38,066 nt of DNA from Dehalococcoidales bacterium (lineage in GTDB: Bacteria > Chloroflexota > Dehalococcoidia > E44-bin15): assembly GCA_030615555.1 (NCBI GenBank), contig JAUWZB010000001.1, positions 1 to 38,066 on the forward strand, written 5' to 3'. The notes under the pieces are model-generated. The model did not search any database. It was not told the origin of the DNA and worked only from the letters and a program-made list of their open reading frames with translations. Positions within the stretch are counted from its first letter, which is position 1; the number at the start of each line of letters is the position of its first letter. Position numbers and translations under genes: made by a program. Shown one piece after another: positions 4,464-28,394 of the stretch.

Positions 4464-4525
4464 AGTTACCTCTTTAGGGGATTTTCGTCTCGGGCGCCGC
4501 TATGGGTAGCATCCTTTGTGGCCAC

Positions 4526-5188: not shown

Positions 5189-5337
5189 CAGATGCTCCCA
5201 AAATTTCCTCTTCAATTATAAGCCATATTGCCGCGTCTCTCAATAGCGGCAATAGGGTAGGCAAAATGGCCTGGTTCGCGCATGTCTGGCTAGCGAAACT
5301 GCCTAGAGGGAAGGTCTTTAGATTAGTCCTTTCCCAC

Positions 5338-5798: not shown

Positions 5799-5817
5799 AC
5801 CAAAGGGGGTGAAGAAC

Positions 5818-6135
5818 ATGGGGACAAAGGCTTACTTCCTGATAAATGTGGATAAGCAGGTTGCGCAACGGGATGACTACTACATAAAGGCAATCAATGA
5901 GCTGGAGGCAATACCCGAAGTAGAGTTCGTGGAGCCAGTTTCCGGGATCTATGACCTTATGGTTAAGGTGGATGTGCCGATAAGGGCCATCTTCGTGGCC
6001 GACAAAATATTGGAAAAGGAATGGGTGAGACGTCTCCATGTGCTTAGGATTGAGGCTGTCGAGCGTGAGCGGGTTAGGCCTATTGAGCGTGAGAGTGTCT
6101 CAGAGCCACCGGTCAAGGGTGTGGTGCAAATTTAA
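5818..6135 (+). CDS. stand-alone Lrp/AsnC ligand-binding (RAM-like) domain protein 2
   Basis: It is a paralog of the preceding gene (MGTKAYFLINV...LEAIPEVEFVEPVSGIYDLMVKVDVPIRAIFVADKI). ATG 5818 with AAGGGGGTG upstream is preferred over the longer ORF-track start at 5779. Confidence 0.7.
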   Translation: MGTKAYFLINVDKQVAQRDDYYIKAINELEAIPEVEFVEPVSGIYDLMVKVDVPIRAIFVADKILEKEWVRRLHVLRIEAVERERVRPIERESVSEPPVKGVVQI

Positions 6136-6184: not shown

Positions 6185-6970
6185 ATGGGAACCAAGGCTT
6201 ACTTCATGATCAAAACGGCGAGGGAGGCTGGTGGCGAGGGCTATGAAGAGGCGCTAAAGGCGCTGGAGGCAATGCCTGAGGTAGAGTCCATTGAGTCTGT
6301 CTCCGGGGATTATGATCATGTGGCCCGGATACATGCCCCGAAAAGCGTGGTTTCCGTGGCCAACAAGATCCTGGAAAACGAATGGATCAAGCATCTCGAG
6401 GTTTTCAAGGTGGAGACCGATGAACCCAATCCTTTCTTGGAGGAGGTCTGCGCTATCCCGGCTGGCGAGAGTATTCGCTCGTGTGCCCAATGCGGGATGT
6501 GCTCCGCCTCTTGTCCCAATATAGATAAAATGGATTATTCGCCACGAAAGATCATTGCCTTGATCCGGGCGGGGAGGCGCCATGAGGCATTGAGCAGCAA
6601 CACCATGTGGGTTTGTGCCTCCTGTTACCTTTGCACGGTGCGCTGCCCCAACGATGTCAAGATAACCGAGATGATGCACGCCCTCGAATGCTTGGCGGTA
6701 GATCGCGACTTAGCCTCCAGCAGAACAGCCACGCCCACGATGTACCAGCTTTTCGTTGACTCCATCAAGAAAAATGGGCGCGTTCATGAGCTGGGATTCA
6801 TGATCAGATTCTACTTGAAAACGAATCCCTTTGCTGCTATTAAGATGGCCCCCGTGGCGCTCCAGCTACTGCGTCATGGACGCATGCCCCTTAGAGCGCG
6901 GAAGATAAAAGGAACCGACCAAATCAAAGCCATTCTTGACCGGGCTCAGGTTTTGGGAGGTGCCCGATGA
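6185..6970 (+). CDS. hdrC: heterodisulfide reductase subunit C-like protein with an N-terminal RAM-like domain
   Basis: aa 1-85 form a third RAM-like copy (MGTKAYFMIKT...MPEVESIESVSGDYDHVARIHAP...WIKHLEVFKVE). Two CxxCxxCxxxCP motifs follow (CAQCGMCSASCP and CASCYLCTVRCP), as in HdrC. The gene overlaps hdrB by 4 nt. Confidence 0.8.
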   Translation: MGTKAYFMIKTAREAGGEGYEEALKALEAMPEVESIESVSGDYDHVARIHAPKSVVSVANKILENEWIKHLEVFKVETDEPNPFLEEVCAIPAGESIRSCAQCGMCSASCPNIDKMDYSPRKIIALIRAGRRHEALSSNTMWVCASCYLCTVRCPNDVKITEMMHALECLAVDRDLASSRTATPTMYQLFVDSIKKNGRVHELGFMIRFYLKTNPFAAIKMAPVALQLLRHGRMPLRARKIKGTDQIKAILDRAQVLGGAR

Positions 6971-7848
6971 GGTACTATCCTTTCTTCCCCGGTTGCTCTT
7001 TAGGGGCTACAGCAGTGGCCTATGGCGATTCAGTAAAAGCTGTAGCTGGCCCGTTAGAGATGGAGTTGATCGAACTGGAGGACTGGAATTGCTGTGGCTC
7101 CACGCCCTACGGCTCCACCGATGAACCGGAGGCGGTTTGCATTGCGGCCCGCAATCTGGCGCTGGCGGAGAAAACTGGCCTCGACCTCGTGACTCCGTGT
7201 AGCGCCTGCTATACCACCTTGCAAAATGCGAACCACAATATCCAGACGTATCCTGACCTGAAGGATCGGGTAAATGACGCGTTGGGTGCTGCCGGACTGG
7301 AGTATGGAGGAAAAGTCAGGGTGAGGCACCTTGCCGAGGTTATCTTCACCGACATCGGGCTTGAGGCCATTGAGTCCAAGGTGGTGAACAAACTCACCGG
7401 GTTGAAGGTTGCCCCCTACTATGGCTGCCAACTGGTAAGGCCCCATAGGGGCTTCGATGATCCGGAGCATCCCCAGACACTGGATCGCCTGATCACGAGC
7501 CTGGGTGCCGAGGCTGTTCCTTTCCCGCTGAAAAGCCGCTGCTGCGGGGGCTCCTTGATCATACCAGAGCCTAACCTGGCCTTAGGTTTGATTCACCAGA
7601 TTTTGGATAGCGCCACCGCAAACGGGGCGGAGTGCATTATTACTCCCTGTCCCCTTTGCCAGACAAACCTAGATGCCTACCAGGGCATGGTGAATGCCAG
7701 GTTCAAAACCAGATATGAAATTCCGATTCTGTTCTTCACCCAGCTCATTGGTCTGGCCTTCGGCATCGACCCTAAAGCACTGGGCTTGGATAAAGGAGCG
7801 GTCTCAGCAAAAAGGGTGCTTGACCCATATTTAGCTGTAGCCAAATAG
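6967..7848 (+). CDS. hdrB: heterodisulfide reductase subunit B
   Basis: 293 aa. The N-terminus YYPFFPGCS and two CCG-domain signatures (NCCGS and RCCGGS...CPLCQ) are present. Confidence 0.9.
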   Translation: MRYYPFFPGCSLGATAVAYGDSVKAVAGPLEMELIELEDWNCCGSTPYGSTDEPEAVCIAARNLALAEKTGLDLVTPCSACYTTLQNANHNIQTYPDLKDRVNDALGAAGLEYGGKVRVRHLAEVIFTDIGLEAIESKVVNKLTGLKVAPYYGCQLVRPHRGFDDPEHPQTLDRLITSLGAEAVPFPLKSRCCGGSLIIPEPNLALGLIHQILDSATANGAECIITPCPLCQTNLDAYQGMVNARFKTRYEIPILFFTQLIGLAFGIDPKALGLDKGAVSAKRVLDPYLAVAK

Positions 7849-7857
7849 GAGGCTTCT

Positions 7858-10800
7858 ATGGAAAAGAAAATCGGCGTCTATATCTGCCACTGCGGAAGCA
7901 ACATTGCGGGCACGGTGGATGTGGAGGAGGTAACTAGGTTTGCCCAGGGATTGGGTTCGGTGGTAGTGGCACGCGACTACAAGTACATGTGTGCCGACAC
8001 GGGGCAGAACCTTATCAAAAATGATATCCAGGAGCTGGAGCTTAACCGGGTTGTTGTTGCTTCCTGCTCTCCCCGGATGCACGAACCTACCTTCAGGCAC
8101 GCGTGCCAGGATGCAGGGCTGAACCAGTACCTCTTCGAGATGGCTAACATCCGGGAGCATTGCTCCTGGGTAACCGAAGACCGCCAGGCGGCCACGGAGA
8201 AGGCCAAGGCTCTGGTGAGTGCGGCGGTGCGCCGCGTTTCGCTTCATGAGCCATTGGAGACCAGGGAGGTTCCCGTCAATCCCAATACCCTGGTCGTGGG
8301 AGGGGGGATCGCCGGGATCCAGGCGGCGTTGGAGATCGCAGCCTCCGGTCACCAGGTTTACTTTGTGGAGCGGGAGCCATCTATCGGGGGGCACATGGCC
8401 CAGCTGGATAAGACCTTCCCCACCCTGGATTGCTCTGCCTGCATCCTCACCCCCAAGATGAGCCAGGTGGGGCAGCACCCCAATATCGAGCTCTTCAGCT
8501 ACAGCGATGTGGTAGAGGTCTCAGGCTATGTGGGCAACTTCAAGGTTAAGGTCAGAAAAAAGGCAAGGTATGTGGATGTTGATAAATGCACCGGTTGTTC
8601 GGAGTGCGAAAAGGTATGTCCTGTTGAGGTGCCCTCTGAATTCGACCTTGGATTGAGCCATAAGAAGGCGGTATACCGGCCTTTCCCTCAGGCTGTTCCC
8701 AATGCTTTCACCATTGACAAACGAGGCTATCCACCCTGCCGGGTTGCCTGTCCCGCCGGGGTCAATGCCCAAGGGTATATAGCTCTTATCTCACAGGGCA
8801 AGTTCAAGGAGGCACTTGAGGTGCTTAGAAGAACTATGCCTTTTGCTGGGGTCTGTGGGCGGGTTTGCACCCATCCCTGTGAGATAGATTGCGAACGGGG
8901 CAAGGTTGATGAGCCTATAGCCGTCCGCTCTCTAAAGCGCTTCATGGCTGACTATGAGTTGAGGGTAGGGAGAGAAAAGGTATCCCCCATCGAAAAGACA
9001 AAAGAAGACAAAGTGGCCATCATTGGCTCTGGGCCAGCGGGCTTAGCCTGTGCTTATGACCTGGTTAGGGAAGGATACCCGGTTACTGTTTTCGAGGCTG
9101 CTCCCCAGAGTGGTGGACTATTGCGCTATGGTATCCCTGAATACAGACTGCCCAAGGAAGTATTGGACAACGAAATCAGCTACATTGAAGAGCTGGGGGT
9201 GGAGATAAAGATGAATACACCGGCGAGAAATCTGGAGGATATCTTCAATCAGGGCTATAAAGCTGTCTTCTTGGCAACTGGCGCTGGGACAAGCCAGAAG
9301 ATGGGTATTCCTAATGAAGACACCAAGGGGGTAATCCATGCCCTTGACTTCCTGAAGCAGGTAATTTCAGGGGAAAAAGTCAGCCTGGGTAATCGAGTAG
9401 CCGTTATCGGCGGTGGCAACGCTGCCATAGATGCGGCTAGAGTGGCTCGTCGCCTCGGGGTAAAGGAGGTTTCAATCGTTTATCGCCGCTCTCGAGCCGA
9501 AATGCCTGCTGTCAAGACCGAGGTCGATGAAGCGGAGCGGGAGGGGGTGAGAATTAACATCCTAGCAGCACCGGTTAGTATCCTAACCGAAAATGAGCGG
9601 CTAGTTGGCATCCAATGTATTCGGATGGAGTTAGGAGAGCCTGATGCTAGTGGTCGCCGACGGCCGGTACCTATTAAGGGCTCAGAATTCAATATGGATG
9701 TTGATAATGTAATCATCGCCATAGGTCAGGCAGTGGATAAAGCCATGCTGCCCGAGGAGCTTGAATATGCTGATTGGGGAACCCTCTCCGTCGACCCTGT
9801 CACCTTACAGACAAATATTGAAGGTGTTTTTGCTGGCGGTGATGTAGTCTCTGGTCCGGCTGATGTTATCGCTACTATTGCTGCCGGGAGGGAAGCAGCC
9901 ACCTCTATAGAGCGTTACCTTAGTGGAGTGGACCTGAAAGACGGAAGACCAACACCGATTAAAAGAGTGAGAGAGGTGTCAAAGGAAAGGGTAGAGACGA
10001 GGGCAAGAGCGGCTATGCCAGCTCTTGAACTGAAGGAGCGAGAAGGTTTTGCTGAGGTTGAGCTCGGCTTTGACGAGAAGATGGCCATTGAGGAAGCTAA
10101 GCGCTGTTTGAGCTGTGCCGTGTGCTCAGAGTGCATGGAGTGCATTAAGGCTTGTGAAGCTGGAGCAATTAGTCATGAAATGGAAGACGAATATGAAGAG
10201 ATTGAAATCGGTAATATAATCGTAGCTACTGGCTATGATGCCTTTGACCCATCTGCGCTGCGCCACTATGGCTATGGGGAGCTTGATAATGTCATTACCG
10301 GTCTTGAGTTTGAGAGAATGGTCAATGCTTCAGGGCCAACCGAGGGCAGGATTGTATTGAATGGCGGCTCAGAACCAAAGACTATTGGTATTATTCACTG
10401 TGTGGGAAGTCGAGATACGAAATACCACAAGTATTGCTCGCAGGTGTGCTGTATGTATTCCATGAAATTCGGCCACCTGGTACGAGAACATGTCCCAGGG
10501 GCTAAAGTCTATGAATTCTATATTGACCTCAGGGCGGTGGGCAAGGCTTTCGAGGAGTTCTATAACCGCGTGCTGGATGAGGGGACCGTCTTTGTGCGGG
10601 GTCGCCCCAGCGAAGTGATCGCGGATGATGGCAGACTGGTTGTCCAGGTTGAAGATACCCTGGCTGATTGTGAGCGCCGTGTCCCTGTAGATATGGTGAT
10701 ACTGAGCACAGCTCTTGAGGCAAGATCAGATGCCGAGGAGGTTGCTAGGCTATTCTCCGTGAGCCGGAGCGCCGATGGCTTCTTCCTGGAGAAACACCCC

Positions 10801-11181
10801 AAGCTTGACCCAGTAGCTACTGCCACCGATGGCATATATGTCGTCGGTTGTTGCCAGTCACCTAAGGACATTCCTCAGAGCGTGGCTCAGGCTTCAGCGG
10901 CTGCGGCAAGGGTCTTAGCCATGATCGAGAAGGGCGAGATTGAGCTCGAGGCTGCTAGTTGTGTTATCGATGAGGAGCTTTGCTCCGGGTGCAAGACCTG
11001 TAACAACCTCTGCCCCTATAATGCCATCTCCTTTGATGAGGAGCGTAAGATGTCCCGCATAAACGAGGCATTGTGCAAAGGCTGTGGTGCCTGTGCTGCC
11101 GCTTGCCCTAGCGGTGCCATTGCCGCAAGGCATTTCACCTCAGAGCAGATCATGGCTGAGATTGAAGGGGTGCTAGTATGA
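7858..11181 (+). CDS. hdrA: HdrA-type flavoprotein with an inserted GltD/NfnB-like NAD(P)H-binding module (HdrL-like architecture)
   Basis: 1107 aa. HdrA hallmarks are IGVYICHCGSNIAG, the FAD site VVGGGIAGIQAALE, CTGCSECEKVCP, CSQVCCMYS, VVGCCQSPKDIPQS and the C-terminal CSGCKTCNNLCP / CKGCGACAAACP. aa ~290-745 resemble the glutamate synthase small subunit or NfnB (CPAGVNAQGY..., GVCGRVCTHPCE, KVAIIGSGPAGLACAYDL, RVAVIGGGNAAIDAAR, FAGGD). Confidence 0.9.
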   Translation: MEKKIGVYICHCGSNIAGTVDVEEVTRFAQGLGSVVVARDYKYMCADTGQNLIKNDIQELELNRVVVASCSPRMHEPTFRHACQDAGLNQYLFEMANIREHCSWVTEDRQAATEKAKALVSAAVRRVSLHEPLETREVPVNPNTLVVGGGIAGIQAALEIAASGHQVYFVEREPSIGGHMAQLDKTFPTLDCSACILTPKMSQVGQHPNIELFSYSDVVEVSGYVGNFKVKVRKKARYVDVDKCTGCSECEKVCPVEVPSEFDLGLSHKKAVYRPFPQAVPNAFTIDKRGYPPCRVACPAGVNAQGYIALISQGKFKEALEVLRRTMPFAGVCGRVCTHPCEIDCERGKVDEPIAVRSLKRFMADYELRVGREKVSPIEKTKEDKVAIIGSGPAGLACAYDLVREGYPVTVFEAAPQSGGLLRYGIPEYRLPKEVLDNEISYIEELGVEIKMNTPARNLEDIFNQGYKAVFLATGAGTSQKMGIPNEDTKGVIHALDFLKQVISGEKVSLGNRVAVIGGGNAAIDAARVARRLGVKEVSIVYRRSRAEMPAVKTEVDEAEREGVRINILAAPVSILTENERLVGIQCIRMELGEPDASGRRRPVPIKGSEFNMDVDNVIIAIGQAVDKAMLPEELEYADWGTLSVDPVTLQTNIEGVFAGGDVVSGPADVIATIAAGREAATSIERYLSGVDLKDGRPTPIKRVREVSKERVETRARAAMPALELKEREGFAEVELGFDEKMAIEEAKRCLSCAVCSECMECIKACEAGAISHEMEDEYEEIEIGNIIVATGYDAFDPSALRHYGYGELDNVITGLEFERMVNASGPTEGRIVLNGGSEPKTIGIIHCVGSRDTKYHKYCSQVCCMYSMKFGHLVREHVPGAKVYEFYIDLRAVGKAFEEFYNRVLDEGTVFVRGRPSEVIADDGRLVVQVEDTLADCERRVPVDMVILSTALEARSDAEEVARLFSVSRSADGFFLEKHPKLDPVATATDGIYVVGCCQSPKDIPQSVAQASAAAARVLAMIEKGEIELEAASCVIDEELCSGCKTCNNLCPYNAISFDEERKMSRINEALCKGCGACAAACPSGAIAARHFTSEQIMAEIEGVLV

Positions 11182-11218
11182 GCTTCCTGCCATCGAAGAA
11201 CCTTAAAGAGGAGGCAGA

Positions 11219-11746
11219 ATGGCTGACACGAATATCGGAATAGTCATGGTATACACGGGACAAGGCAAGGGCAAGACTACGGCTGCTCTGGGAACAGCAC
11301 TGCGGGCTGCTGGTCACGGATTGAAAGCGATCGTGATCCAGTTTCCTAAAGCCGACCTCGATTATGGAGAATATCTCTTCACCGGGAAGTACTACCCTTT
11401 TGAGATAGTGCAGCTAAATAAGGGAAAGACCTCCACCCAATCGGAGCAGGAACTGCACTCAGTCATCCGGCAGACCTTAGCATATGCGGAGGAAGTGCTG
11501 TTTGAGGGGCACCATCATGTGGTTGTCCTCGATGAGATTTTCAATGCAATTGACGGGGGCGGGTTAAGCACTGAGGACGTTATGGGCTTGATCAGCATAA
11601 AGCCACATTGGGTAAATCTAATCCTGACTGGGGAAAGGGCGCCAAGAGAGGCTGTCAAGCGAGCTGATTTGGTCACTGAAATGATTAAGGTCAAGCATCA
11701 CTTCGCTCAGGGCGTTGGAAGTATGCTCGAAGGGATAGATTACTGA
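11219..11746 (+). CDS. CobA/CobO/BtuR-family ATP:cob(I)alamin adenosyltransferase-like protein
   Basis: 175 aa with the P-loop VYTGQGKGKTTAALGTALRAAGHG...IVIQF, and then VVLDEI. The size is typical of the family. RBS GAGGAGG. Confidence 0.7.
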   Translation: MADTNIGIVMVYTGQGKGKTTAALGTALRAAGHGLKAIVIQFPKADLDYGEYLFTGKYYPFEIVQLNKGKTSTQSEQELHSVIRQTLAYAEEVLFEGHHHVVVLDEIFNAIDGGGLSTEDVMGLISIKPHWVNLILTGERAPREAVKRADLVTEMIKVKHHFAQGVGSMLEGIDY

Positions 11747-11765
11747 CATTGCCCTGAAAAGCCTG

Positions 11766-12893
11766 TTGGCGAACATTTATGCGATGGTTAATTTGGAAAT
11801 CGAGCAAACCCAATCCTTGCAGACGCAGCAGGAACAAAGGCAGTTCCTCCGATTGGAACAGGCCAATCTGTTGGAAATGCCTGAGGAGGATTTTCACCGG
11901 CTCATCAGTGAGATAGAAAATAGCTCCCTTTTCAAAAAGCTTTACCGAGAAGAAAAGATAATCCACTACCAGCGATTCCCCAGAACCGATATCTCCTCTA
12001 GTTTCTATCAACTTAAAGAAGAGATCGTGGCTGATAAAGGCTCTCTCGATGTCGAATCCCTCCTGCTGAATAAAGAGCATCTTGTTCATCAAATACAAAA
12101 TTTGGGGCTGGAAAAATTCAAGCGATATTTCCTATACCCAGAACTGGACATGGGCGTGGAGGACATTGCCCGAGAGTGCGATTTGGATGTTTCAGAGGTT
12201 CGGAAGATAAACAGCCTTGTTGATGAATTCTCTATCTTGAGCGAGTTTTATAATCCCTCTTCTCTCAGCGCGGAGCACGGAATCTACTATTCCAAGATCG
12301 CCTCGGTAGAAAGGGGGCTAGAGGGTTTTGTCATTGGCTATTTTTCCCCCTCCTTCGCCCGGGGAAGGTATTCCATCGATTATGAGAGATTTGAAGAGTT
12401 GAAGAGGGGTGGCACTTTTAGTGAGACAGAGGCCAAGCAGCTATTGAGGAAACTGGAGCTAATTAATACCCGTAAGGACACGGTAACTCGAATATTGCAA
12501 AATATTGTGGAAAAGCAAGCGCTCTACTTCGAATCTGGCGATTTGAAGGCTCTTCTACCTTTTAGCCAAAAGGAGCTAGCCAAAAGGGTCGGACTTGCCC
12601 CCAGCTCCATCAGCCGTGCCATCAGGGGCAAAAGCCTTGACACACCCAGGCGTGAAGAGAAACCCCTTAAGGACTTTTTCCCCCGACCGAGGAGGTTTAA
12701 GAAAGAGTTGATCAGGCGACTCCTTGAAACTGAGACTGAGCCCCTATCTGATGAGGCGATTAAAGGCGGGCTAAACAGGGAATTCGGCGTCTCCATTTCC
12801 CGTCGCTCGGTAGCGAGCCTGAGAAAGGAACTGAAAATACCTGCAGCATGGAAGAGAAGGAAAAACTTTCCTAGAAAGGCAGAGGAAGCCTGA
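11766..12893 (+). CDS. rpoN: short, divergent RNA polymerase sigma-54 factor
   Basis: The Gln/Leu-rich N-terminus (LEIEQTQSLQTQQEQRQFLRLEQANLLEMPEEDF) resembles region I. The C-terminal HTH is SQKELAKRVGLAPSSISRAIRGKSLDTPR..PLKDFF. An RpoN-box-like sequence GVSISRRSVASLRKELKIP replaces the consensus ARRTVAKYR. The start is uncertain: TTG 11766 or ATG 11784, and neither has a clear RBS. Confidence 0.7.
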   Translation: MANIYAMVNLEIEQTQSLQTQQEQRQFLRLEQANLLEMPEEDFHRLISEIENSSLFKKLYREEKIIHYQRFPRTDISSSFYQLKEEIVADKGSLDVESLLLNKEHLVHQIQNLGLEKFKRYFLYPELDMGVEDIARECDLDVSEVRKINSLVDEFSILSEFYNPSSLSAEHGIYYSKIASVERGLEGFVIGYFSPSFARGRYSIDYERFEELKRGGTFSETEAKQLLRKLELINTRKDTVTRILQNIVEKQALYFESGDLKALLPFSQKELAKRVGLAPSSISRAIRGKSLDTPRREEKPLKDFFPRPRRFKKELIRRLLETETEPLSDEAIKGGLNREFGVSISRRSVASLRKELKIPAAWKRRKNFPRKAEEA

Positions 12894-12895
12894 GA

Positions 12896-14845
12896 ATGGG
12901 CATTGTCTTCACCGTGCGAGAAAAATGTAAAGGGTGTTATGCTTGTATTCGTAGTTGCCCATGCAAGGCAATCAGGGTGGAGCAGGGCTTAGCACAGGTG
13001 ATGAAGGAACGCTGCATCGCCTGCGGCACCTGTCTTCAGGTGTGCGCCACAGGGGCAAAGCAGGTGGAGAGCGACCTAGGAGTGGTTTGGCAATTATTGG
13101 CACAATATCCTAATGTAATCGCTATCCTTTCCTCCTCCTTTCCGGCTGCCCTGCCCGAGATTCGCCCTGGACAGCTTGTAACTGCCCTAAAAAGGCTAGG
13201 ATTTAGTGAGGTTATGGCGGACTCCTTTGGTGCTGAGCTTGTCGGCCGAGAGTATGCCCAGCTTCTAAGTAAAGACAAAGATAGGCCTATCCTTTCGTCT
13301 AACTGCCCAGCGGCAGTAACCTACATTGAGAAATACCATATCCCGCTAATCAGTTATCTGGCACCTATCGTTTCGCCTATGATTGCCATGGGTAGAGTGG
13401 TCAAATGGCAGTATAATCCGGAGGCTAAGGTAGTCTTTATTGGTCCTTGCGTAGCCAAGAAGGCTGAGAGCAAAGACGAAAAGGTTGCTGGAGTCATAGA
13501 TGCTGTGCTGAGCTTTGCTGAGTTGAAGGAGATGTTCGCTGCCAAGGGGATTACTCCTGAATCTGAGGAAGGGGGGCAATTCTCAGGTCCCAAACCCTAC
13601 CTTGGTCGCCTGTTTGCCATATCAGGGGGGTTACTTAAAGTAATGGGACTCTCCGATGATATTCTACAAAACGATGTCATCAGCGCCCATGGTAGGGATT
13701 ATGTGGTCAAAATCCTTCGGGAATTTGTTCGAGGCGACATCACTGCCAGATTTGTCAACCTACATTTCTGCCACGGGTGCATTGATGGACCAGTTATTGA
13801 CAATGAGCTAAGTGGCTTTAGGCGCAAGGAACTCATCGCCAATTATACTACGGGTAGGGCAGACCCAGTTCAAACTGAGAGGGATATCCAAGAGTATGCC
13901 AGTATTAACCTCAGCCGCAAATTTACCAGTCAAAGTATTGGACTAGCTACTCCCAGCGATAAAGATGTCCAAAGTGTCTTGAAACAGATGAATAGGGCAA
14001 ACCCTGAAGAGCAGTTCAACTGTGGTGCCTGTGGCTATAGCTCCTGCTGGGAGTTGGCGGTCGCTGTCTGTCAGGGCTTGGCTGAGACTGATATGTGCTG
14101 GCCATATGTCCTTAACAGGTTGAAGGCTACCCAAGAAGAGCTAATACAGGCAGAGAAGCTGACTTCTCTAGGCCAGATGGCAGCCTCTATTGCCCACGAG
14201 GTCAATAATCCCTTGTCCGGGGTTTTGGTCTACACCAAACTATTATCAAAAAAGTTAGATAGCGACACCTTCTCTAAACAAGAAGCCCTGGGCTACCTGT
14301 CGAAAATGGACTCAGAGGTCAGCCGTAGCTCGAAGATAATCCGCAATCTTTTGGATTTCGCCCGCCAGTCGGAGCCAGTGTTGAGGGCAGTGGATGTCAA
14401 CCAGGTTATCGAGCAAGCCCTCTCGCTGGTCAGCCATCAGGCCCAACTGCAAAACATCGAGGTAGTAAAAGAGCTAAGCCCCTCCTTGCCCAAGGTGATG
14501 GCCGATTTCGATCAGTTGCAGCAGGTTTTCACCAATCTCATCCTGAACGCGATTCAGGCTATGCCCGATGGGGGGAGGTTGACCCTCCGCACCTCGGTGG
14601 ATAGCGATGGTCAACTCAAAGTAGACATTCAGGATACCGGCTGCGGCATTTCCAGAGAGAATTTGCGAAGGCTCTTCACCCCCTTCTTTACCACCAAAGA
14701 GAAGGGGAAAGGCGTTGGCTTAGGATTGGCTGTGGTCCACGGGATCATCCAGAGGCACCAGGGAAGGATCGAAGTGCAAAGCGAGGTGGGGGAGGGAACC
14801 ACCTTCACCATCTACTTAGGAGCTCACTATGAAGAAGAGGCCTAA
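12896..14845 (+). CDS. [FeFe]-hydrogenase-like (HydS-type) sensory domain fused to a histidine kinase
   Basis: Two ferredoxin motifs are present (CKGCYACIRSCP and CIACGTCLQVC). H-domain motifs are SSNCP, GPCVAKKAE and FCHGC. An additional CGACGYSSC-x16-C motif follows, then HisKA (SIAHEVNNPL) and HATPase_c (NLILNAIQAM, DTGCGI, GKGVGLGLAV). The start lies 3 nt after the rpoN stop. Confidence 0.8.
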   Translation: MGIVFTVREKCKGCYACIRSCPCKAIRVEQGLAQVMKERCIACGTCLQVCATGAKQVESDLGVVWQLLAQYPNVIAILSSSFPAALPEIRPGQLVTALKRLGFSEVMADSFGAELVGREYAQLLSKDKDRPILSSNCPAAVTYIEKYHIPLISYLAPIVSPMIAMGRVVKWQYNPEAKVVFIGPCVAKKAESKDEKVAGVIDAVLSFAELKEMFAAKGITPESEEGGQFSGPKPYLGRLFAISGGLLKVMGLSDDILQNDVISAHGRDYVVKILREFVRGDITARFVNLHFCHGCIDGPVIDNELSGFRRKELIANYTTGRADPVQTERDIQEYASINLSRKFTSQSIGLATPSDKDVQSVLKQMNRANPEEQFNCGACGYSSCWELAVAVCQGLAETDMCWPYVLNRLKATQEELIQAEKLTSLGQMAASIAHEVNNPLSGVLVYTKLLSKKLDSDTFSKQEALGYLSKMDSEVSRSSKIIRNLLDFARQSEPVLRAVDVNQVIEQALSLVSHQAQLQNIEVVKELSPSLPKVMADFDQLQQVFTNLILNAIQAMPDGGRLTLRTSVDSDGQLKVDIQDTGCGISRENLRRLFTPFFTTKEKGKGVGLGLAVVHGIIQRHQGRIEVQSEVGEGTTFTIYLGAHYEEEA

Positions 14846-16193
14846 AATCCTTGTTGTTGATGATGAAGCTGTTATGCGCGAATCGCTTCATGATTGGCTA
14901 AGCGATGCTGGCTACCAGGTGTTCACTGCGGAAAATGGCCCACAAGCCCTAGAGATTATCGAAAAAGAGAACCTTGGAATTGTCATCGCCGATCTGGTGA
15001 TGCCAGGGATGGACGGGATCGAGTTGATGAAGCAGGCCAGGGAGATCCTTCCCAACATCCAGGTGATCATCATTACCGCCTATGGAAGCATCCCCACCGC
15101 TATTGCTGCCATGAAGGAAGGAGCCTATGACTATATCGAGAAGCCCTTCTGCCCCGAGAGAGTGGAATCGCTGCTCGAGAGGTTGGTTGAGCATCAAGGG
15201 CTAATTGAGGAGAACCTTTCCCTGCGCCAGAGATTAGAGGATCGCTACCGCTTTGAGAATATCATCGCTAAAAGCCCTGAGATGCAGCGGGTGATTGAGG
15301 TGATCAAGGTCGTGGCCAGGAGCAACGCCACCGTATTAATCACGGGCGACAGCGGCACCGGAAAGGAGCTAGTGGCGCGAGCCATCCACTCCCAGAGCCA
15401 TCGCCGGGACAAGCCCTTTGTTGCCGTCAGCTGCGCTGCCTTGCCCGAGAGTCTCCTGGAGAGCGAGTTGTTCGGTCACGAGAAGGGTTCCTTCACCGGG
15501 GCTTATGCTCAAAAGAAGGGGAAATTCGAGTTCGCCAACCGGGGGACACTCTTCTTGGATGAGATCGGCGAGATGAGTGCCAACATTCAAGTCCATCTGT
15601 TGAGAGTCTTGGAAGAAAAGGCATTCACCAGGGTTGGTGGCAACGAGGAGATCAAGGTAGATGTGAGGATTATCTCAGCCACCAACAAGGACCTGAAAAA
15701 GGCAGTAGCCAGGGGGGAATTCCGGGAAGACCTTTATTACCGGCTCAATGTGGTTACCATCGACTTGCCTCCATTGAGGGAAAGAAGGGAGGACATTCCG
15801 CTCTTAGCTGAGCACTTCTTGAACAAATTTGCCCTAGAGAATCAGAAAGAGGTTGCCGGGTTCTCCCCCGAGGCGAGGGAGTTTCTGTTGCGTTATGACT
15901 GGCCAGGAAACGTCCGTGAGTTGGAAAACGCTATCGAAAGGGCGGTTATCCTGGCCAAAAATTCTTTAATTGAGGTTGCCGACCTACCTGACCAAAGCTG
16001 GTCGTTGGCCCGTTCGGCTTTGCAGGGGAAAAGCCTTAAAGAGATGGAGAAGAACCATATCCTGAATGTGCTCTCTGAAACTGGGGGGAATTATAGCCAA
16101 GCGGCCAGGATCTTGGGGATTAGCAGAATGACGCTCTATAATAAAGCGCGGGAGTATGGGTTAGATGTAAAGAAAATAGACAACGCTGGCTAA
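14829..16193 (+). CDS. sigma-54-dependent response regulator (NtrC family: REC, AAA+, Fis-type HTH)
   Basis: REC shows ILVVDDE...IADLVMPGMDG. The AAA+ domain shows Walker A GDSGTGKE, GSFTGA (a GAFTGA variant) and LFLDEIGE. The C-terminal HTH is NYSQAARILGISRMTLYNK. It overlaps the kinase gene by 17 nt. Confidence 0.9.
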   Translation: MKKRPKILVVDDEAVMRESLHDWLSDAGYQVFTAENGPQALEIIEKENLGIVIADLVMPGMDGIELMKQAREILPNIQVIIITAYGSIPTAIAAMKEGAYDYIEKPFCPERVESLLERLVEHQGLIEENLSLRQRLEDRYRFENIIAKSPEMQRVIEVIKVVARSNATVLITGDSGTGKELVARAIHSQSHRRDKPFVAVSCAALPESLLESELFGHEKGSFTGAYAQKKGKFEFANRGTLFLDEIGEMSANIQVHLLRVLEEKAFTRVGGNEEIKVDVRIISATNKDLKKAVARGEFREDLYYRLNVVTIDLPPLRERREDIPLLAEHFLNKFALENQKEVAGFSPEAREFLLRYDWPGNVRELENAIERAVILAKNSLIEVADLPDQSWSLARSALQGKSLKEMEKNHILNVLSETGGNYSQAARILGISRMTLYNKAREYGLDVKKIDNAG

Positions 16194-16254
16194 TTCCTTT
16201 ACACATTACAGAAAGTCAGTGAATCCTTAGCCTCTCCGTTGAGGCAGAGAAAAA

Positions 16255-16287
16255 GGCTATCCAGAGGTTTCAGGGTAGTCTTTTTTT
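16255..16287 (+). terminator. intrinsic terminator after the ntrC-like gene
   Basis: The stem GGCTATCC / GGGTAGTC has 8 bp including two G-U pairs. It has a 10-nt loop and is followed by seven T. Confidence 0.5.
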
Positions 16288-16302
16288 GGCAGGAAAATTG
16301 CA
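16287..16302 (+). promoter_or_regulatory. sigma-54 (-24/-12) promoter TGGCAG-GAAAA-TTGCA
   Basis: It matches the consensus TGGCAC-N5-TTGCW at 10 of the 11 specified positions and has the exact GG-N10-GC spacing. It lies 84 nt upstream of the ATG at 16386 and directly downstream of a sigma-54 activator gene. Confidence 0.7.
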
Positions 16303-16385
16303 AGTTCATAGGGTGAAAGGAGATGATAGAAATGAGAGGACAACGAGTTGTGGCAACTAAGGAAAAAGAAAAGGAGGCCACAAAA

Positions 16386-17390
16386 ATGAAACCGGTGCTA
16401 ATCGTTGAGGATGAAGCCATCATGCGAGAGTCGCTCAGAGACTGGCTTAAGGATGAGGGCTACGAGGTAGAAACAGCCGAGCAAGGGGAAGAAGCTTTAC
16501 ACAGGATCGGTGAGGTGGACTTTGGTGTTGTGGTGCTCGACCTGAGATTGCCGGGAAAGGACGGGCTTGAGGTGTTGAAGGAGGCGATGGCACAAAGGCC
16601 ACAGCTCAAGGGGATCATCATTACCGCTTATCCATCGGTGGAGACAGCAGTGGAGGCGATGAAACTCGGGGCAGTTGATTACGTAGTTAAGCCCTTCGCC
16701 CCTGATGCTCTGGAAAAATTGATCCGGGAGACCCTTGGAGCTGTTCAGGTGGAGATAAGGCCTAAGACTGCTACTGAGGAGATAGTGGGAGCTCCCGCAG
16801 TTGAGGAGGCCAAGGTTGAGGAAGCCATAGCCATAACCGAGGAGGAAATCCCCACCCACCTCCAGCAAGGCAAGGATCACTTCAAGGCAGGCCGCTATGG
16901 GGAGGCAGTGAAGGAATTCGAGGCCATCCTCAACCTCGCCCCAGGGCACATCGAGACTCGGACTCTGATTCGAAAGGCGAAGGAAGAGCTGGCGAGGCCG
17001 AGGATTGAGGTGCCTGAAGGGGAGGCTGCTCTTGAGGAAGCGGTCAAGCCCAAGGAGTGTGTCTGGATGAAGCTGGGGGTGGTCTCCTATCGGCTTTGCA
17101 CCCAGGACTACGATTGCCTCAACTGCGAGTTTGACCAGATGATGCAAGAGCGGATGGCTAAGGGGGAGGCCCCGGAGATCGAAGAGGCTCTGGAGAGATT
17201 TAAGGAACTACCCGGCAACCAGAGGCTTTGTCGTTACGCTCTCAAGGGCGATGTCAACTACCGGCTTTGCACCAGCCTCTTTCAATGTGCCACATGTGAA
17301 TTTGGTCAAATGATGGACGATGCTCTCCAGCGAAAGCTGGATAAGCTAGCTACCCGACGGGAAGCATTACGCAAAAAGTCTCATCTTTAA
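16386..17390 (+). CDS. orphan receiver protein with a TPR-like segment and two C-terminal Cx12Cx5Cx2C modules
   Basis: REC shows VLIVEDE...VLDLRLPGKDG...KPF. A TPR-like segment is GKDHFKAGRYGEAVKEFEAILNLAPGH. The repeats are CVWMKLGVVSYRLCTQDYDCLNCEFDQMM and CRYALKGDVNYRLCTSLFQCATCEFGQMM. ATG 16386 with AAGGAGG 8 nt upstream is preferred. ATG 16323 and ATG 16332 are alternatives. Confidence 0.8.
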   Translation: MKPVLIVEDEAIMRESLRDWLKDEGYEVETAEQGEEALHRIGEVDFGVVVLDLRLPGKDGLEVLKEAMAQRPQLKGIIITAYPSVETAVEAMKLGAVDYVVKPFAPDALEKLIRETLGAVQVEIRPKTATEEIVGAPAVEEAKVEEAIAITEEEIPTHLQQGKDHFKAGRYGEAVKEFEAILNLAPGHIETRTLIRKAKEELARPRIEVPEGEAALEEAVKPKECVWMKLGVVSYRLCTQDYDCLNCEFDQMMQERMAKGEAPEIEEALERFKELPGNQRLCRYALKGDVNYRLCTSLFQCATCEFGQMMDDALQRKLDKLATRREALRKKSHL

Positions 17391-17479: not shown

Positions 17480-18904
17480 TTAGCTCCTTAATCTCCGATA
17501 AATATTTCCCGCTGAATCGTAGACACTTATTTCCAAAGGCATCTGACCTAGGGAGTGTGTAGCGCAAGAGAGACATGGGTCATAGCAGCGAATAGCAACC
17601 TCAACCCGATTAAGTATCCCTTCAGTAACCTTGCCGGCTTTGATAAATTCCTTAGCTACCTCATAGACAGCGCGATTCATTGCTAAATTATTATGACCAG
17701 TAGCTACAATTAGGTTGACCTTGCGAATCATACCGCTTGTATCTATCCAATAATGGTGGAAAAGGGTTCCCCGAGGGGCTTCAACTACTCCCACCGCCTC
17801 TTCATTGAGCTTGGTGGAGGTGACCCATATTTCCGTGGAGCAGATGAGATCATCCTGCAGGAGTGACTTTATCCTTTCCGCGGCATGCAGTGCCTCGATC
17901 ATTCGGGCATAGTGGTAGTATAATGATCCTTCTACTACCCCCTTGCCCATCAGTTTCTTGAAGTTCTGAAACTCCTTATTGGCCAGGGGGGTGGCAATGC
18001 CATCGGCGATATTCAATCTGGCCAGCGGTCCCACGCGGTAAATGCCTGCGGGATAACCCTTCTTTTTATAATAGGGGAACTTGAGGTAAGACCAGTCCTC
18101 CACCTTTTCTTCAATGATGGAGAGGTAATCCTCGGGAGCAATCTTATCCTCCCGAATAATCCCTTTATCATCTTTCAATCTGAGCTTCCCATCATAAAGC
18201 TCCAGGTTGCCGTTATCATCGACTAGTCCGAGATAGCCAGTGGGAAAGTTGGCAAAGCGGGCAGACTCCTCGCTATGCTGGTCATAGTACCCCTTGATCA
18301 GGTCTATGGCGATTTGAACATCGGCGATCATCCCGTCTAGCTGTCCGAGGAATTCCTCGCGTTTCTCCGGGGAAAGGGCCTTATTCATCCCTCCCGGGAT
18401 GGCAGCATTGGGATGAACCCTCTTATCCCCAAGCTCCTCGATTATCTTCAGGCCAAAAGCGCGCAGTCCTACTCCCTTTTTGGCGAGCTCGGGGTTTTTC
18501 GCAATAACCCCCATAACGTTTCGGATGGCGGGGTCAGCATCCATGCCGAAGAGCAGATCAGGGCTGGCCAGATGAAAAAAGTGCAGCGAGTGAGACTGAA
18601 GATACTGGGCCATGTGCATTAACTGGCGCAGCATCTTTGCTGTAGGGGTCAGCTCCACCCCCAGGAGAGCATCCCCAGCCTTGGCTGAGGCGAGGTGGTG
18701 GCTTACAGGACAAATACCACAGATTCGGCTGGTGATGACCGGCATCTCCCAGAAAAGCCGCCCCTCGCAAAACTTCTCAAATCCCCGCACCTGGGTCACA
18801 TGAAACCTGGCCTGAGCTACATTTCCGCTATCGTCAAGATGAATAGTTACCTTTCCATGCCCCTCAAGGCGGGTAACTGGCTCAATTATGATTTTCCTGG
18901 TCAT
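17480..18904 (-). CDS. hoxH: [NiFe] hydrogenase large subunit, group 3 (Hox-like by context)
   Basis: RLEGHGKV, the N-terminal ligand pair [10 protein letters not shown] and the C-terminal pair DPCLSCATH are present. A 24-aa tail follows the His and is the expected substrate of a maturation endopeptidase. Confidence 0.9.
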
Positions 18905-18916
18905 TCAATAGCCTCC

Positions 18917-19456
18917 TCAATCAAACCTCATCATCTCGCTCGGGAGCACTGGAATTCTGCCCTCCAGAAGTTCGGTCAGGGCATAGTGAATAGCTTTAGA
19001 GCTAGGGGGGCACCCCGGAACATAACAATCAACTTTAACCACCTGGTTTACCGGCTTAACCTGCTCTAAGAGCTGGGGGAGGTCTTCTGAGGATGGGACT
19101 TTACCGTCTTTGGTGCTCTCGGTCTCAAGATAATATCTGCGAAAAACCTCTTCTTTGCTGAAAAGGTTGCGCATGGTGCATATCCCCCCAAAGCAAGCGC
19201 AATCGCCCCACACCATCAGTATTTTGCAGTTGGCACGCAATTCCTTGGCTACTTCTTCATCGTGGGTGTTGCCTATTGCCCCTTCAATAATCCCAACATC
19301 GACAGGTGAAAACTCTTTAATGTCGGTTATGGGACTGGCGGTGATTTCAATTGCATCTGCCAGACCGATAAGCGCCTCATCTAAATCCAGAAAAGACATA
19401 TGGCATCCAGCGCAACAGTCTAACCATGCTGTAGCGACCTTAACCTTTGCCACCAT
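18917..19456 (-). CDS. hoxY: [NiFe] hydrogenase small subunit (HoxY / NuoB-like, proximal cluster only)
   Basis: 179 aa. WLDCCAGCHMSF, GDCACFGG and VPGCPP supply the four-Cys set of the proximal [4Fe-4S] cluster. The short length is typical of group 3 small subunits. Confidence 0.85.
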   Translation of the reverse strand: MVAKVKVATAWLDCCAGCHMSFLDLDEALIGLADAIEITASPITDIKEFSPVDVGIIEGAIGNTHDEEVAKELRANCKILMVWGDCACFGGICTMRNLFSKEEVFRRYYLETESTKDGKVPSSEDLPQLLEQVKPVNQVVKVDCYVPGCPPSSKAIHYALTELLEGRIPVLPSEMMRFD

Positions 19457-19463
19457 TAACCTC

Positions 19464-21437
19464 CTAGCTTGGCCTTAATTCGTGCCCTAGCTTTTTGGAA
19501 AGCTCGATCAATATCTCCTGGTCCTGAAGCAGACCATCTTTGGGTTGAAGCACTCGTTTTAATTCGAGAAGGCGGCCATCCATGCTCATATATTTGCCTT
19601 CCCTCTCTGCCCAGATGGGAGAGGGCAGAACTACATCAGCTATGGCTGTAGCAGGTGAGTGATAGCTTGCGTGCACCACCAGGAAATCGATTCCTTTAAG
19701 CCAGTCCAATAGCTCCTCGTCCTCCTGTTCATCGCCAAGGAGAAGGTAGAGCCCTTTCAGCCCATCCCGCTTTATCTCTCCTGCCGCGAGACCCAGCTCC
19801 CAGCCACCGCGGCTATTGGCAGCGGGTTTGAGCGAGATGACCCTTAGCCTACCGCCCGCCTGATTTCCTGTTAAATCAGCCAAATTGAGCAGGGAGGTAA
19901 CAATGCTTGGATCGTTCCGCTGCACCAATCCTTCTCCGTAGATGATTACGCCACGCTTAGCTTGACCGTACATCTCTGCTGCCAACTCCAAGCTCTCCCT
20001 CTCTATGCCTGTGGCTCTGTTTACCTCGCCTGTCTTATACTGGCTCAGAGATTGGACAGGCTCTGCGGTTACCTTTTCCCGCGCGACCAGGCCCTTATCA
20101 ATAATGATCTTGGCTAGGCCATTAAGAAGAACCCCTTCACTACCTGCCACGGGTTTAAGCCAGAGGTCGGTCCACAGAGGGAAAACATCCTGCGATGAAT
20201 CTACCACTATCAACTTTGCTCCCTTTTGGCTTACTGCTCGCTGCACGAGAGTGCCAATGATGGGATGGGTCTTCTTGGGATCGGCCCCTGCTATAAGAAT
20301 GCAATCTGCATCTAGTATCTCTTCAATGGGGCACTCGATGTCCAATCCCTTTCCGCCATTTTGAAGCTGGCTAACACCCTCGGCGATTATCCGATAGCTC
20401 CTTCCGCCCAGGGTATCGATGGAATCGCTGCCGATCACCTCACGGATAAATTTATAAAACAAGGAAAGTGTTTCATTTGGGAGTCTTGCGGACATTATGC
20501 CAGCAAAGCCATCCTTTAACCCGCTCACTCTCCCGGCAATGACCTCCGCTGCCTTATCCCAAGTACATTCTTCAAGCTTGCCTTGCTTGCCTCGCACCAA
20601 GGGAGAGGTGACCCGGGGACGAGTTTCGAGAAGCAACTCAAAACGCCCCATGCTGCACAGTGGCCCTCTTAGCTCCGTTAACCTTGGCGCTTCAATCCTC
20701 ACGATGTTATTGTCTTTCACCAGTACATTCAGTTCACAGCCAACTCCGCAAGCAGAACAAACAGTCGTTATCTGCTGGCAGTCGCTTGTGCTACCCTTAT
20801 AAAGACTGAGCTTGCTGAAAATAGCACCTGTGGGACATGCCTGCACACAAGCACCGCAGGAGGTGCAGGATGATTCGCCCACTGGTTGCTCCAAGTCGGC
20901 AGACACCAGCGTTCTCCAGCCACGTCTACTGAAATCCAGAGTATAGTTTGCCGCTATCTCACTACACGCCCGAATGCACCTGCCACAAAGGATGCAACGG
21001 TTATGGTCAATCACCAGGTAATCACTTAATGGATCCACAGGCAAAGAGGGAAAGGTATAGGGGTAGCGCACATTGTCCATCTGATATCGGTAGGCCAGTT
21101 TTTGTAGCTCACAGTCTCCGCTCTGCTCGCAGAACATGCAGAAATGATTGCGCTCGGTGAAGATGAGTTCCAATATCTGGCGGCGATATTTCTCCAGCTC
21201 CTCAGTGTGGGTTTTCACCACCAGTCCATCCCTGGTGGGGTAGGTGCAGGAAGGAACTGGCCTCCTCTCCCCCTCGATCTCCACCACACACATTCGGCAG
21301 GCTCCCACGTCACTTAATCCCTCCAGGTGACAGAGCGTAGGCACATCGATGCCATTAGCCTGACAGATTTCAAGAACGGTATCCCCTTCCCTCCCTTTAA
21401 CTTGCTGATCATTGATTGTCAAAGTTATCTCTTTCAT
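19464..21437 (-). CDS. NuoG/HoxU-like Fe-S subunit carrying a degenerate, non-catalytic molybdopterin-oxidoreductase domain
   Basis: Motifs are the N-terminal [2Fe-2S] site (CHLEG..GACRMC..C), HFCMFCEQSGDCELQ, CILCGRCIRAC, CTSCGACVQACPTGA and CSACGVGCEL. At the FDH active-site position it reads IDTLGGRSY, where the paralog upstream has IDHCARLCH. The C-terminal dinucleotide-binding barrel appears to be missing. Confidence 0.8.
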   Translation of the reverse strand: MKEITLTINDQQVKGREGDTVLEICQANGIDVPTLCHLEGLSDVGACRMCVVEIEGERRPVPSCTYPTRDGLVVKTHTEELEKYRRQILELIFTERNHFCMFCEQSGDCELQKLAYRYQMDNVRYPYTFPSLPVDPLSDYLVIDHNRCILCGRCIRACSEIAANYTLDFSRRGWRTLVSADLEQPVGESSCTSCGACVQACPTGAIFSKLSLYKGSTSDCQQITTVCSACGVGCELNVLVKDNNIVRIEAPRLTELRGPLCSMGRFELLLETRPRVTSPLVRGKQGKLEECTWDKAAEVIAGRVSGLKDGFAGIMSARLPNETLSLFYKFIREVIGSDSIDTLGGRSYRIIAEGVSQLQNGGKGLDIECPIEEILDADCILIAGADPKKTHPIIGTLVQRAVSQKGAKLIVVDSSQDVFPLWTDLWLKPVAGSEGVLLNGLAKIIIDKGLVAREKVTAEPVQSLSQYKTGEVNRATGIERESLELAAEMYGQAKRGVIIYGEGLVQRNDPSIVTSLLNLADLTGNQAGGRLRVISLKPAANSRGGWELGLAAGEIKRDGLKGLYLLLGDEQEDEELLDWLKGIDFLVVHASYHSPATAIADVVLPSPIWAEREGKYMSMDGRLLELKRVLQPKDGLLQDQEILIELSKKLGHELRPS

Positions 21438-21452
21438 CGTGTTAACCCTCTC

Positions 21453-24128: not shown

Positions 24129-24147
24129 GTATTATCACCTCATTTAT

Positions 24148-26325: not shown

Positions 26326-26830
26326 AGGGACTAAGGATGTCTTTTATCTCGCCGGGCTTGACCTTCCTATGGACATCATCCCCGATAGCCATTACCGGGG
26401 ATAGCCCACAACAGCCCAGGCAGCGGACAGTTTCCAGGGAGAATTTACCGTCTGGGGTGATGCCCTCAGGTTCAAGGCCAGAGTCTTTCTTCAAGGTATC
26501 GAGGAGCCTCTGACCTCCCTTAACATAGCAACTGGTGCCCAGGCAAATCTGGATGACATGCCTGCCCTTGGGCACCATGGTGAAGAAGTGATAGAAACTG
26601 ACTATTCCATATAGTTCGCTCAGGGGGATCTTTAAGTCCCTGGAGATGGTTTTTAGCACCGGTGGTGGCAGGTAGCCAATTAGCCCCTGTGCCTGTTGCA
26701 ACACCCGAATGAGAGTGCCAGCTTGTCCCCCCGTATCGTCGATTACCCTCTGGATTTGTCTGAAAATCCTCCCCGCATACCCAGCGCCAATCTCTTCTCT
26801 TGCTGGCGCCTCAGTCTCAATTCTTTCCAT
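26318..26830 (-). CDS. hoxE: NuoE/HoxE-like [2Fe-2S] subunit
   Basis: 170 aa with ICLGTSCYVKGG...VRCLGCCGLSPVM, the classic NuoE four-Cys pattern. RBS AAGAGGAGG. Confidence 0.9.
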   Translation of the reverse strand: MERIETEAPAREEIGAGYAGRIFRQIQRVIDDTGGQAGTLIRVLQQAQGLIGYLPPPVLKTISRDLKIPLSELYGIVSFYHFFTMVPKGRHVIQICLGTSCYVKGGQRLLDTLKKDSGLEPEGITPDGKFSLETVRCLGCCGLSPVMAIGDDVHRKVKPGEIKDILSPYE

Positions 26831-28367: not shown

Positions 28368-28394
28368 CAAATCGAGCATTTTGAGGCTTGACCA

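Follow-up and report, generated by a model that had tools for sequence, protein, structure and literature searches.

A conserved Dehalococcoidia gene cassette that combines a hydrogenase-domain sensor kinase, an NtrC-type activator and a compact sigma-54-like protein

The DNA considered here is a 38,066-nt window (the whole stretch that was analyzed) of contig JAUWZB010000001.1, assembly GCA_030615555.1, from a Dehalococcoidales bacterium. In it, a gene for a compact sigma-54-like protein is followed by genes for a sensor histidine kinase with an [FeFe]-hydrogenase domain, for an NtrC-type activator and, behind a -24/-12 promoter element, for a second receiver protein. This cassette is real, conserved and coherent; its parts are of known kinds, and their combination is unusual and undescribed. 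We consider it probable that it is a conserved Dehalococcoidia regulatory cassette in which sensor, activator, sigma-type factor, promoter and second receiver make up a self-contained unit. The initial annotation of this DNA had proposed such a unit, and the conservation of both cassette and promoter across species bears the proposal out.

The cassette and its conservation across species

The four open reading frames (ORFs) of the cassette lie on the plus strand where they had been placed (11766-12893, 12896-14845, 14829-16193 and 16323/16386-17390), and the 17-nt overlap of the kinase and NtrC genes is confirmed; the sigma-like gene and the kinase gene are separated by 2 nt rather than the 3 nt first given, a trivial difference. 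Pfam and NCBIfam scans of the window proteins returned most of the domains that the initial annotation had predicted, namely Fe_hyd_lg_C, an Fe-S domain, HisKA, HATPase_c, Sigma54_DBD and Sigma54_activat, but not the predicted AID and CBD domains of sigma-54. The activator is of NtrC type, as expected, with Response_reg, Sigma54_activat (E = 4.5e-76), AAA_lid_14 and HTH_8 domains and a GSFTGA loop; among related loci, this loop reads GSFTGA in 31 and GAFTGA in 11.

A scan of one genome per species found 47 loci, nearly all of them in Dehalococcoidia/Dehalococcoidales metagenome-assembled genomes, and 37 had enough downstream sequence to be evaluated. The order sigma-54-like gene, kinase gene, NtrC gene, put forward earlier as a search pattern, is kept in 34 of these 37, and the receiver gene comes after the NtrC gene in about 35 loci. 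The cassette recurs beside hdr, nuoEF-hox and hox genes in many species, and on the same strand behind the promoter and receiver gene there follow hdrA-like genes in about 13 loci and nuoE-nuoF-hoxU in 4. In the literature, our searches turned up no account of this cassette.

The kinase is the variable part. Among the 34 loci with the conserved order, 28 have the hydrogenase-domain kinase and 6 have a kinase of ~413 aa, and at one locus both types stand in tandem. Replacement of the hydrogenase input by another input in 6 loci counts against the proposed reading, and H2 sensing is thus not essential to the module. The N-terminal input region of the ~413-aa kinase had no Pfam match, and its PAS label, which comes from weak tblastn similarity, is unconfirmed. 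Two decayed cassettes were also seen: in one (L012:1375-3412) sigma-like gene, promoter and receiver gene survive, the NtrC gene is reduced to remnants and the kinase is absent, and in the other (L032:9653-10992) the NtrC gene is split in two.

In general plan the cassette resembles NtrB/NtrC, ZraS/ZraR and AtoS/AtoC, each with a HisKA kinase, a REC-AAA+-HTH_8 activator with a GAFTGA-type loop and a -24/-12 promoter. Unlike those systems, it has a sigma gene in the operon, a metallo-sensor as input and a promoter placed to drive a second receiver.

Table 1. Positions of the cassette features and flanking redox genes in the window
Feature	Position	Strand	Details
hdrC/hdrB/hdrA-like and cobA-like genes, upstream of cassette	6185..11746	+	Pfam Fer4_17, CCG, Pyr_redox_2/Fer4_20, CobA_CobO_BtuR; short gaps
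Compact sigma-54-like factor, 369 aa	11784..12893	+	Region I-like N-terminus, divergent short central region, beta-hairpin, extra-long helix, helix-turn-helix (HTH), RpoN box
Sensor histidine kinase	12896..14845	+	2x[4Fe-4S] ferredoxin, [FeFe]-hydrogenase H-domain, Cx2Cx4Cx16C cluster, HisKA (H434), HATPase_c
NtrC-type response regulator/bacterial enhancer-binding protein (bEBP)	14829..16193	+	REC, AAA+ with GSFTGA, Fis-type HTH
Inverted repeat GTAAAGAAA-N18-TTCCTTTAC, candidate activator site	16167..16202	.	Spans NtrC stop codon, ~85-120 bp 5' of promoter
Intrinsic terminator-like hairpin and T-run, abutting -24 element	16248..16286	+	dG -20.5 kcal/mol, z -4.57
Sigma-54-type -24/-12 promoter TGGCAGGAAAATTGCA (TGGCAG-N5-TTGCA)	16287..16302	+	GG and GC at canonical spacing
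Second receiver: REC, one TPR, two C-x12-C-x5-C-x2-C-E-F modules	16332..17390	+	Response_reg E 3.5e-30, TPR_2
nuoE/nuoF/fdhA/hoxU-like/hoxY/hoxH operon, convergent	17480..26830	-	Pfam assignments

The compact sigma-54-like protein and its family

Family alignment and a ribosome-binding site place the start of the sigma-like protein at ATG 11784, which is M7 of the ORF that opens at TTG 11766. Its sole Pfam match is Sigma54_DBD (PF04552, residues 222-366, 82 bits). Strong sigma-54 homology begins at the beta-hairpin that precedes the extra-long helix and continues across the HTH into the RpoN box, and when a family profile was searched against the PDB, its positions 163-365 matched Aquifex sigma-54 (E = 8e-27). 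In an alignment of 94 diverse members, R278 of the HTH is invariant, and R341 and R347 of the RpoN box are present in at least 90%. By sequence, then, the C-terminal half is clearly that of a sigma-54.

The N-terminal half required more sensitive comparison. A single E. coli RpoN sequence in hhalign revealed the C-terminal half only (98.7% probability), and hence a profile of eight canonical RpoN proteins was used, to which the family aligned end to end. In this comparison, family residues 5-53 matched Region I (E. coli 4-50) with scores of 26.6 to 36 and P values of 1e-5 to 8e-5, against a highest score of 17.3 among 30 column-shuffled control profiles. An AlphaFold (AF2) model built from the 94 sequences reached a pLDDT (predicted local distance difference test) of 91.5 and a pTM (predicted template modeling score) of 0.87 and was used instead of an earlier, poor model from 21 close homologs (pLDDT 60.8). 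In a Foldseek search of the PDB, its best 28 matches were all sigma-54 structures, some of them spanning 400 to 440 alignment columns. The length of the protein is comparable to that of the solved short sigma-54 chains in the PDB (329-380 residues).

Three results count against calling this a sigma-54. The protein misses the cutoff of the TIGR02395 rpoN equivalog widely (89.5 against 277.35 bits); none of the 94 family members matched the Pfam AID (PF00309) or CBD (PF04963) models, even at E = 0.1; and the core-binding signal is a profile match of 28 to 30 residues whose score of 21-25 is barely over the shuffled controls. The initial annotation, which had called this a short sigma-54 gene, was therefore right about the DNA-binding domain, but the protein is not a short canonical sigma-54; it belongs to a divergent DBD-only family in which the Region I signal is weak. 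Our reading of the sequence is that it is a compact, divergent sigma-54-type factor that is without Region II, has a reduced core-binding region and would still bind core polymerase.

A different view of the same gaps is that the protein is a DNA-binding regulator, a repressor or decoy acting on -24/-12-like sites, with a canonical RpoN encoded elsewhere doing the transcribing. The missing AID and CBD signals across the family, the weakness of the CBD-like profile match, the compactness of the AF2 model with its pTM of 0.87 and the presence, at related locus L022, of another Sigma54_DBD-only protein, whose C-terminus is unrelated, would all fit it. However, the Region I-like N-terminus scores well above the controls, full-length structural alignments reach sigma-54 only, the length is near that of solved short chains, and linkage to activators of the GAFTGA type, which act through Region I, spans phyla. 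We regard this alternative as very unlikely, and a compact sigma-54-type factor remains our preferred reading.

The sigma-like protein is not a one-off truncation, because 716 close relatives of 360-372 aa share its DBD-only pattern. An exhaustive search of 50%-identity representatives returned 185 matches at E < 1e-30, mostly full length and down to ~30% identity. We examined seven distant members, and in six the downstream neighbor could be identified; in all six it is, or begins with, a REC domain. A REC-Sigma54_activat bEBP was confirmed beside four of them. For P0136 and for P0147, the latter from Elusimicrobiota, the REC-bEBP gene comes next in a ketoacyl-synthase/radical-SAM context; P0231 has the order sigma-like gene, kinase, activator; and P0266 is divergent from a PAS kinase and activator. 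P0200 lies after enolase-DivIC and is followed by a REC gene that runs off the contig end, and P0168 is in the same enolase-DivIC context. Linkage to an activator is therefore a trait of the sigma-like family and not peculiar to the cassette, and because the family is typically encoded beside its own REC-type activator, the protein most likely acts, so far as gene context can tell, as a module-specific sigma factor.

It might instead be the organism's general, lineage-typical sigma-54, serving many activators and promoters, with its adjacency to a two-component system a historical accident. The housekeeping-like enolase-DivIC neighborhood of some distant members is in keeping with this, as is the reported presence of sigma-54 with activators in "some Chloroflexi" (PMC3162934). 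Even beside enolase-DivIC, though, the next gene begins with a REC domain; activators adjoin all the distant members with an identifiable downstream neighbor (six of the seven examined); and across 728 kb of related loci, no intergenic -24/-12 element recurs other than that in front of the receiver gene. A general role thus seems unlikely to us, and we continue with a module-specific factor.

The nearest described precedent is in Cereibacter (Rhodobacter) sphaeroides, whose four RpoN paralogs have cognate activators, including RpoN1-NifA, RpoN2-FleQ and RpoN3-AprX, with GAFTGA/GSFTGA in AprX homologs (PMC11999139). As there, one sigma-54 protein would work with one particular activator on a small gene set. 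The C. sphaeroides paralogs have standard sigma-54 architecture and belong to one proteobacterium, whereas the cassette factor belongs to a divergent family of ~360 aa found in Chloroflexota and Elusimicrobiota and physically adjoins its activator.

The compact sigma-54-like factor appears to represent an unrecognized family. Our literature searches found no description of DBD-only sigma-54 proteins; of two published surveys, both with little coverage of this group, one reports sigma-54 only in "some Chloroflexi" (PMC3162934), and the other makes no mention of Chloroflexota and describes sigma-54 by three Pfam models (PMC12316311). Definitions of sigma-54 that require the three Pfam domains together miss the compact family, and because of this, counts of sigma-54-type regulation may be too low in Chloroflexota, Elusimicrobiota and further phyla that are little studied. 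Another thing that the family may reveal is the minimum core-binding region that a sigma-54 needs. Several of its members are named "transposase" by JGI, and NCBIfam gives weak IS630/IS3 HTH matches; this naming is probably an annotation artifact of the HTH. The second Sigma54_DBD protein at L022 (1053-2402, minus strand, 449 aa, match E = 6e-9) is divergent from the sigma-54-like gene, and its C-terminal extension contains a GIY...YIG-like motif recognized by eye only, without Pfam support.

The sensor kinase and its likely signal

The kinase input had been described as a ferredoxin, an H-domain and a Cx2Cx4Cx16C cluster, and this description holds: Pfam gives a 2x[4Fe-4S] ferredoxin (Fer4), Fe_hyd_lg_C (E = 2e-45), an FeS domain (PF04060), HisKA and HATPase_c, and the four-cysteine motif is C376/C379/C384/C401. 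Alignment to solved [FeFe] hydrogenases shows NCP in place of TSCCP, PCvaKKaE in place of MPCxxKxxE and CHGC in place of CxxGC, and the proton-relay cysteine (C299 of CpI, the first Cys of TSCCP) is replaced by Asn. The H-cluster ligands C137, C185, C292 and C295 are invariant among 23 family members, as are the four cysteines of the C-terminal motif, the eight ferredoxin cysteines and H434. Of the residues that align to CN-contacting positions of the catalytic enzymes, P83 is invariant and K188 nearly so.

TmHydS and TamHydS, both sensory hydrogenases, are distinguished by loss of the proton-relay Cys, two N-terminal clusters and a C-terminal motif of four cysteines (PMC8163306), and HydDB lists an [FeFe] class "C1, histidine kinase-linked (putative)" (PMC5037454). 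The cassette kinase shares with HydDB C1 and with TmHydS/TamHydS (groups C and D) the N-terminal 2x[4Fe-4S] domain, the retained cluster cysteines, the lost proton-relay Cys and the C-terminal Cx2Cx4Cx16C motif, and it has the histidine kinase link by which C1 is defined. It differs from both in that the H-domain is fused straight to HisKA/HATPase without a PAS domain, and in that its gene shares an operon with those for an NtrC-type activator and for a sigma-54-type factor. The input is likely a sensory-type [FeFe] hydrogenase, C1-like by the published class definition (PMC5037454). The initial annotation had taken coupling of a sensory [FeFe] hydrogenase to a His-Asp relay to be out of the ordinary; it is indeed uncharacterized, but the existence of HydDB class C1 means that it is not unprecedented.

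Kinase homologs number more than 4000, and the architecture is common to the best 120, so the fused hydrogenase-kinase arrangement is catalogued, abundant and generically annotated, though uncharacterized. To our knowledge, no C1 member has been characterized biochemically. Most of what is known about sensory [FeFe] hydrogenases comes from spectroscopy, and their onward signaling is an outstanding question. In Cupriavidus necator, the HoxBC-HoxJ-HoxA system, of [NiFe] group 2b, leads from an H2-sensing regulatory hydrogenase through a histidine kinase to an NtrC-family regulator and controls hydrogenase genes; the HoxBC sensor has another metal center and forms a protein complex of its own instead of being fused to the kinase as a domain, and the sigma factor is not co-encoded. 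HydDB describes [NiFe] group 2b as histidine kinase-linked H2 sensing (PMC5037454).

H2 is the most economical reading of the signal from these sequence features, a general redox or Fe-S signal being the candidate alternative. In the latter case the H-domain would hold Fe-S clusters only, in the manner of Nar1/NARF and without a 2Fe subcluster, or would otherwise serve in general redox, O2, CO or iron-sulfur sensing, so that the kinase would be a redox switch. This is possible if doubtful. It would accord with the loss of the proton-relay Cys, with a third motif that is CxxC instead of the usual CxxxC, with the use of a non-hydrogenase kinase in the same cassette in some species and with a 2024 survey in which the H-cluster motifs of HATPase-containing C1 proteins in another phylum were hardly recognizable (PMC11406978). 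No maturase genes (HydE/F/G) were visible among the genes of the 38-kb window, which points the same way. Yet the four H-cluster cysteines and P83 are invariant and K188 is nearly so, characterized sensory hydrogenases have lost the proton relay in just this way (PMC8163306), and the neighbors of the hydrogenase-domain kinase are hydrogenase and bifurcation genes. We therefore keep H2 as the favored signal. A sensor fused to its kinase, an activator, a sigma-type factor and a single conserved promoter all fit within ~5.6 kb, and one could reconstitute the entire route from H2 to transcript, whether in vitro or in a heterologous host.

The promoter, the second receiver and the neighboring redox genes

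The -24/-12 element is where the initial annotation had found it. Within the window, a strict promoter pattern is not above chance (1 observed and 0.57 expected, with at least 1 in 45 of 100 shuffles), and the element owes its significance to conservation: 36 related loci have TGGCA-N6-TTGC, with consensus TGGCAAGAAAATTGCA, between NtrC gene and receiver gene, in flanking intergenic sequence that is poorly conserved. At L001 and L010, where the receiver gene has been relocated upstream of the sigma-like gene, hairpin and promoter have moved along with it. Five loci (L003, L008, L023, L032 and L039) have two tandem -24/-12 copies, 55-70 bp apart, before the receiver gene. A promoter-like TGGCAWAGCCTTTGCT several kb upstream in five loci (L007:1509, L013:5439, L014:5618, L016:5479 and L023:2615) was rejected; it lies inside a conserved opposite-strand ORF and, judged by that context, is a coding-sequence coincidence.

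The terminator hairpin and T-run had likewise been described correctly, and none of 200 shuffles of the window hairpin folds as well. In single-sequence folds of the related loci, an equivalent strong hairpin with a T-run leading into the -24 element was found in ~25 of 34, with compensatory changes in the stem, a pattern in keeping with a terminator by which the upstream operon ends just where the promoter begins. An inverted repeat, GTAAAGAAA-N18/19-TTTCTTTAC, stands at the 3' end of the NtrC gene in 18 loci (at most one mismatch per arm, 18-19 bp spacer). Its conservation is partly confounded because the left arm is coding sequence, and on sequence grounds it is a candidate site for activator binding, to be taken as a lead.

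The second receiver protein most probably starts at ATG 16332, which is favored over 16323 and 16386 by a conserved ribosome-binding site and a conserved N-terminal extension. The description of it as a receiver with two four-Cys modules is borne out, with REC, TPR and two C-x12-C-x5-C-x2-C modules in which all 8 Cys are invariant in the family. The Cys domain, the C-terminal third, has no relative in Pfam or the PDB, only the TPR part being matched; the best database matches to the C-terminal half are stand-alone TPR-Cys proteins of ~208 aa. The REC domain is 53% identical to that of the NtrC protein and therefore fits a single kinase that would feed both receivers. In two loci (L034:4539-8484 and L046:14480-18391), separate REC and TPR-Cys genes bracket nuoE-nuoF inside a nuoEF-hoxU operon behind a sigma-54-type promoter.

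We propose that H2 or the redox state of the cell alters the H-cluster and Fe-S chain of the kinase and so sets autophosphorylation of H434. The NtrC-type activator would receive the phosphate and so, probably, would the paralogous REC domain of the second receiver, as the REC identity suggests. The phosphorylated activator would then use ATP to remodel RNA polymerase carrying the co-encoded sigma-54-type factor at the conserved -24/-12 promoter, which, directly behind the operon terminator, would drive the REC-TPR-(Cys4)2 gene. Many further species also have hdrA-like or nuoEF-hoxU genes behind this promoter on the same strand. In the window the promoter can drive the receiver gene only, because hoxH converges on it.

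The initial annotation had further supposed that the cascade tunes both of the operons between which it is placed. That the cassette recurs beside hdr and hox genes agrees with this idea, but the window itself gives no sign of direct control: a permissive scan of its intergenic regions for -24/-12 elements found nothing convincing before hdr or hox-fdh, and half-sites of the inverted repeat do not recur there. The promoter of the hox-fdh operon is ~10 kb off, with the operon converging on the cassette. Also to be set against the proposed circuit are the chance-level frequency of the promoter pattern in the window and a candidate activator site that is partly explained by coding constraint and strict in 18 loci only. 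The receiver gene is the sole direct target that the sequence would indicate, any influence on hdr or hox-fdh in the window would pass via the second receiver protein, and the link between the cascade and these operons is an association that draws on conserved neighborhood and on operon arrangements in other species. Should it hold, the Hdr, Hox and Fdh electron-bifurcation genes of uncultured subsurface Dehalococcoidia may be tied to hydrogen availability.

A bolder version of this proposal would have a minimal sigma-54 clade (~360 aa, without Region II, with a reduced core-binding region and invisible to three-Pfam-domain surveys) inherited across phyla with its own kinase and activator. The Dehalococcoidia unit would be an H2-gated single-promoter module whose receiver/twin-Cys4 product docks on a bifurcating Hdr or on NuoEF-Hox and controls them post-translationally. 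Docking on NuoEF-Hox is hinted at because the split REC and TPR-Cys genes sit inside nuoEF-hoxU operons; taken as a whole, we think this version distinctly improbable.

In the window, hdrCBA-cobA and the three genes for the sigma-like protein, the kinase and the NtrC protein probably share a transcript; the hdrA-cobA and cobA-sigma-54-like gaps (11182-11783) contained no terminator-like site. At the 5' side of hdrC, two overlapping ORFs of 117 and 118 aa (5445-6135, plus strand), which are without Pfam matches, may be the first genes of a long hdr-to-ntrC operon. An Rfam scan of the window returned no family.

Several features of the redox genes are of interest in their own right. The HdrA-like protein (7858-11181, plus strand) is 1107 aa long, with an inserted GltD/NfnB-like module (Fer4_20 and Pyr_redox_2) and C-terminal ferredoxin domains, an arrangement that suggests a fused NAD(P)H-linked bifurcating Hdr. 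Two tandem formate-dehydrogenase-like proteins are encoded between nuoF and hoxYH (19464-24128, minus strand), one a full FdhA of 891 aa and the other a 657-aa paralog with a HoxU-like N-terminus and a molybdopterin domain, without the Molydop_binding domain. The redox operons are flanked by two more two-component systems (2425-5215, minus strand, and 27663-30803, plus strand), with GAF-PAS HisKA_3 kinases and LuxR-type regulators, which could be direct regulators of hdr or hox-fdh.

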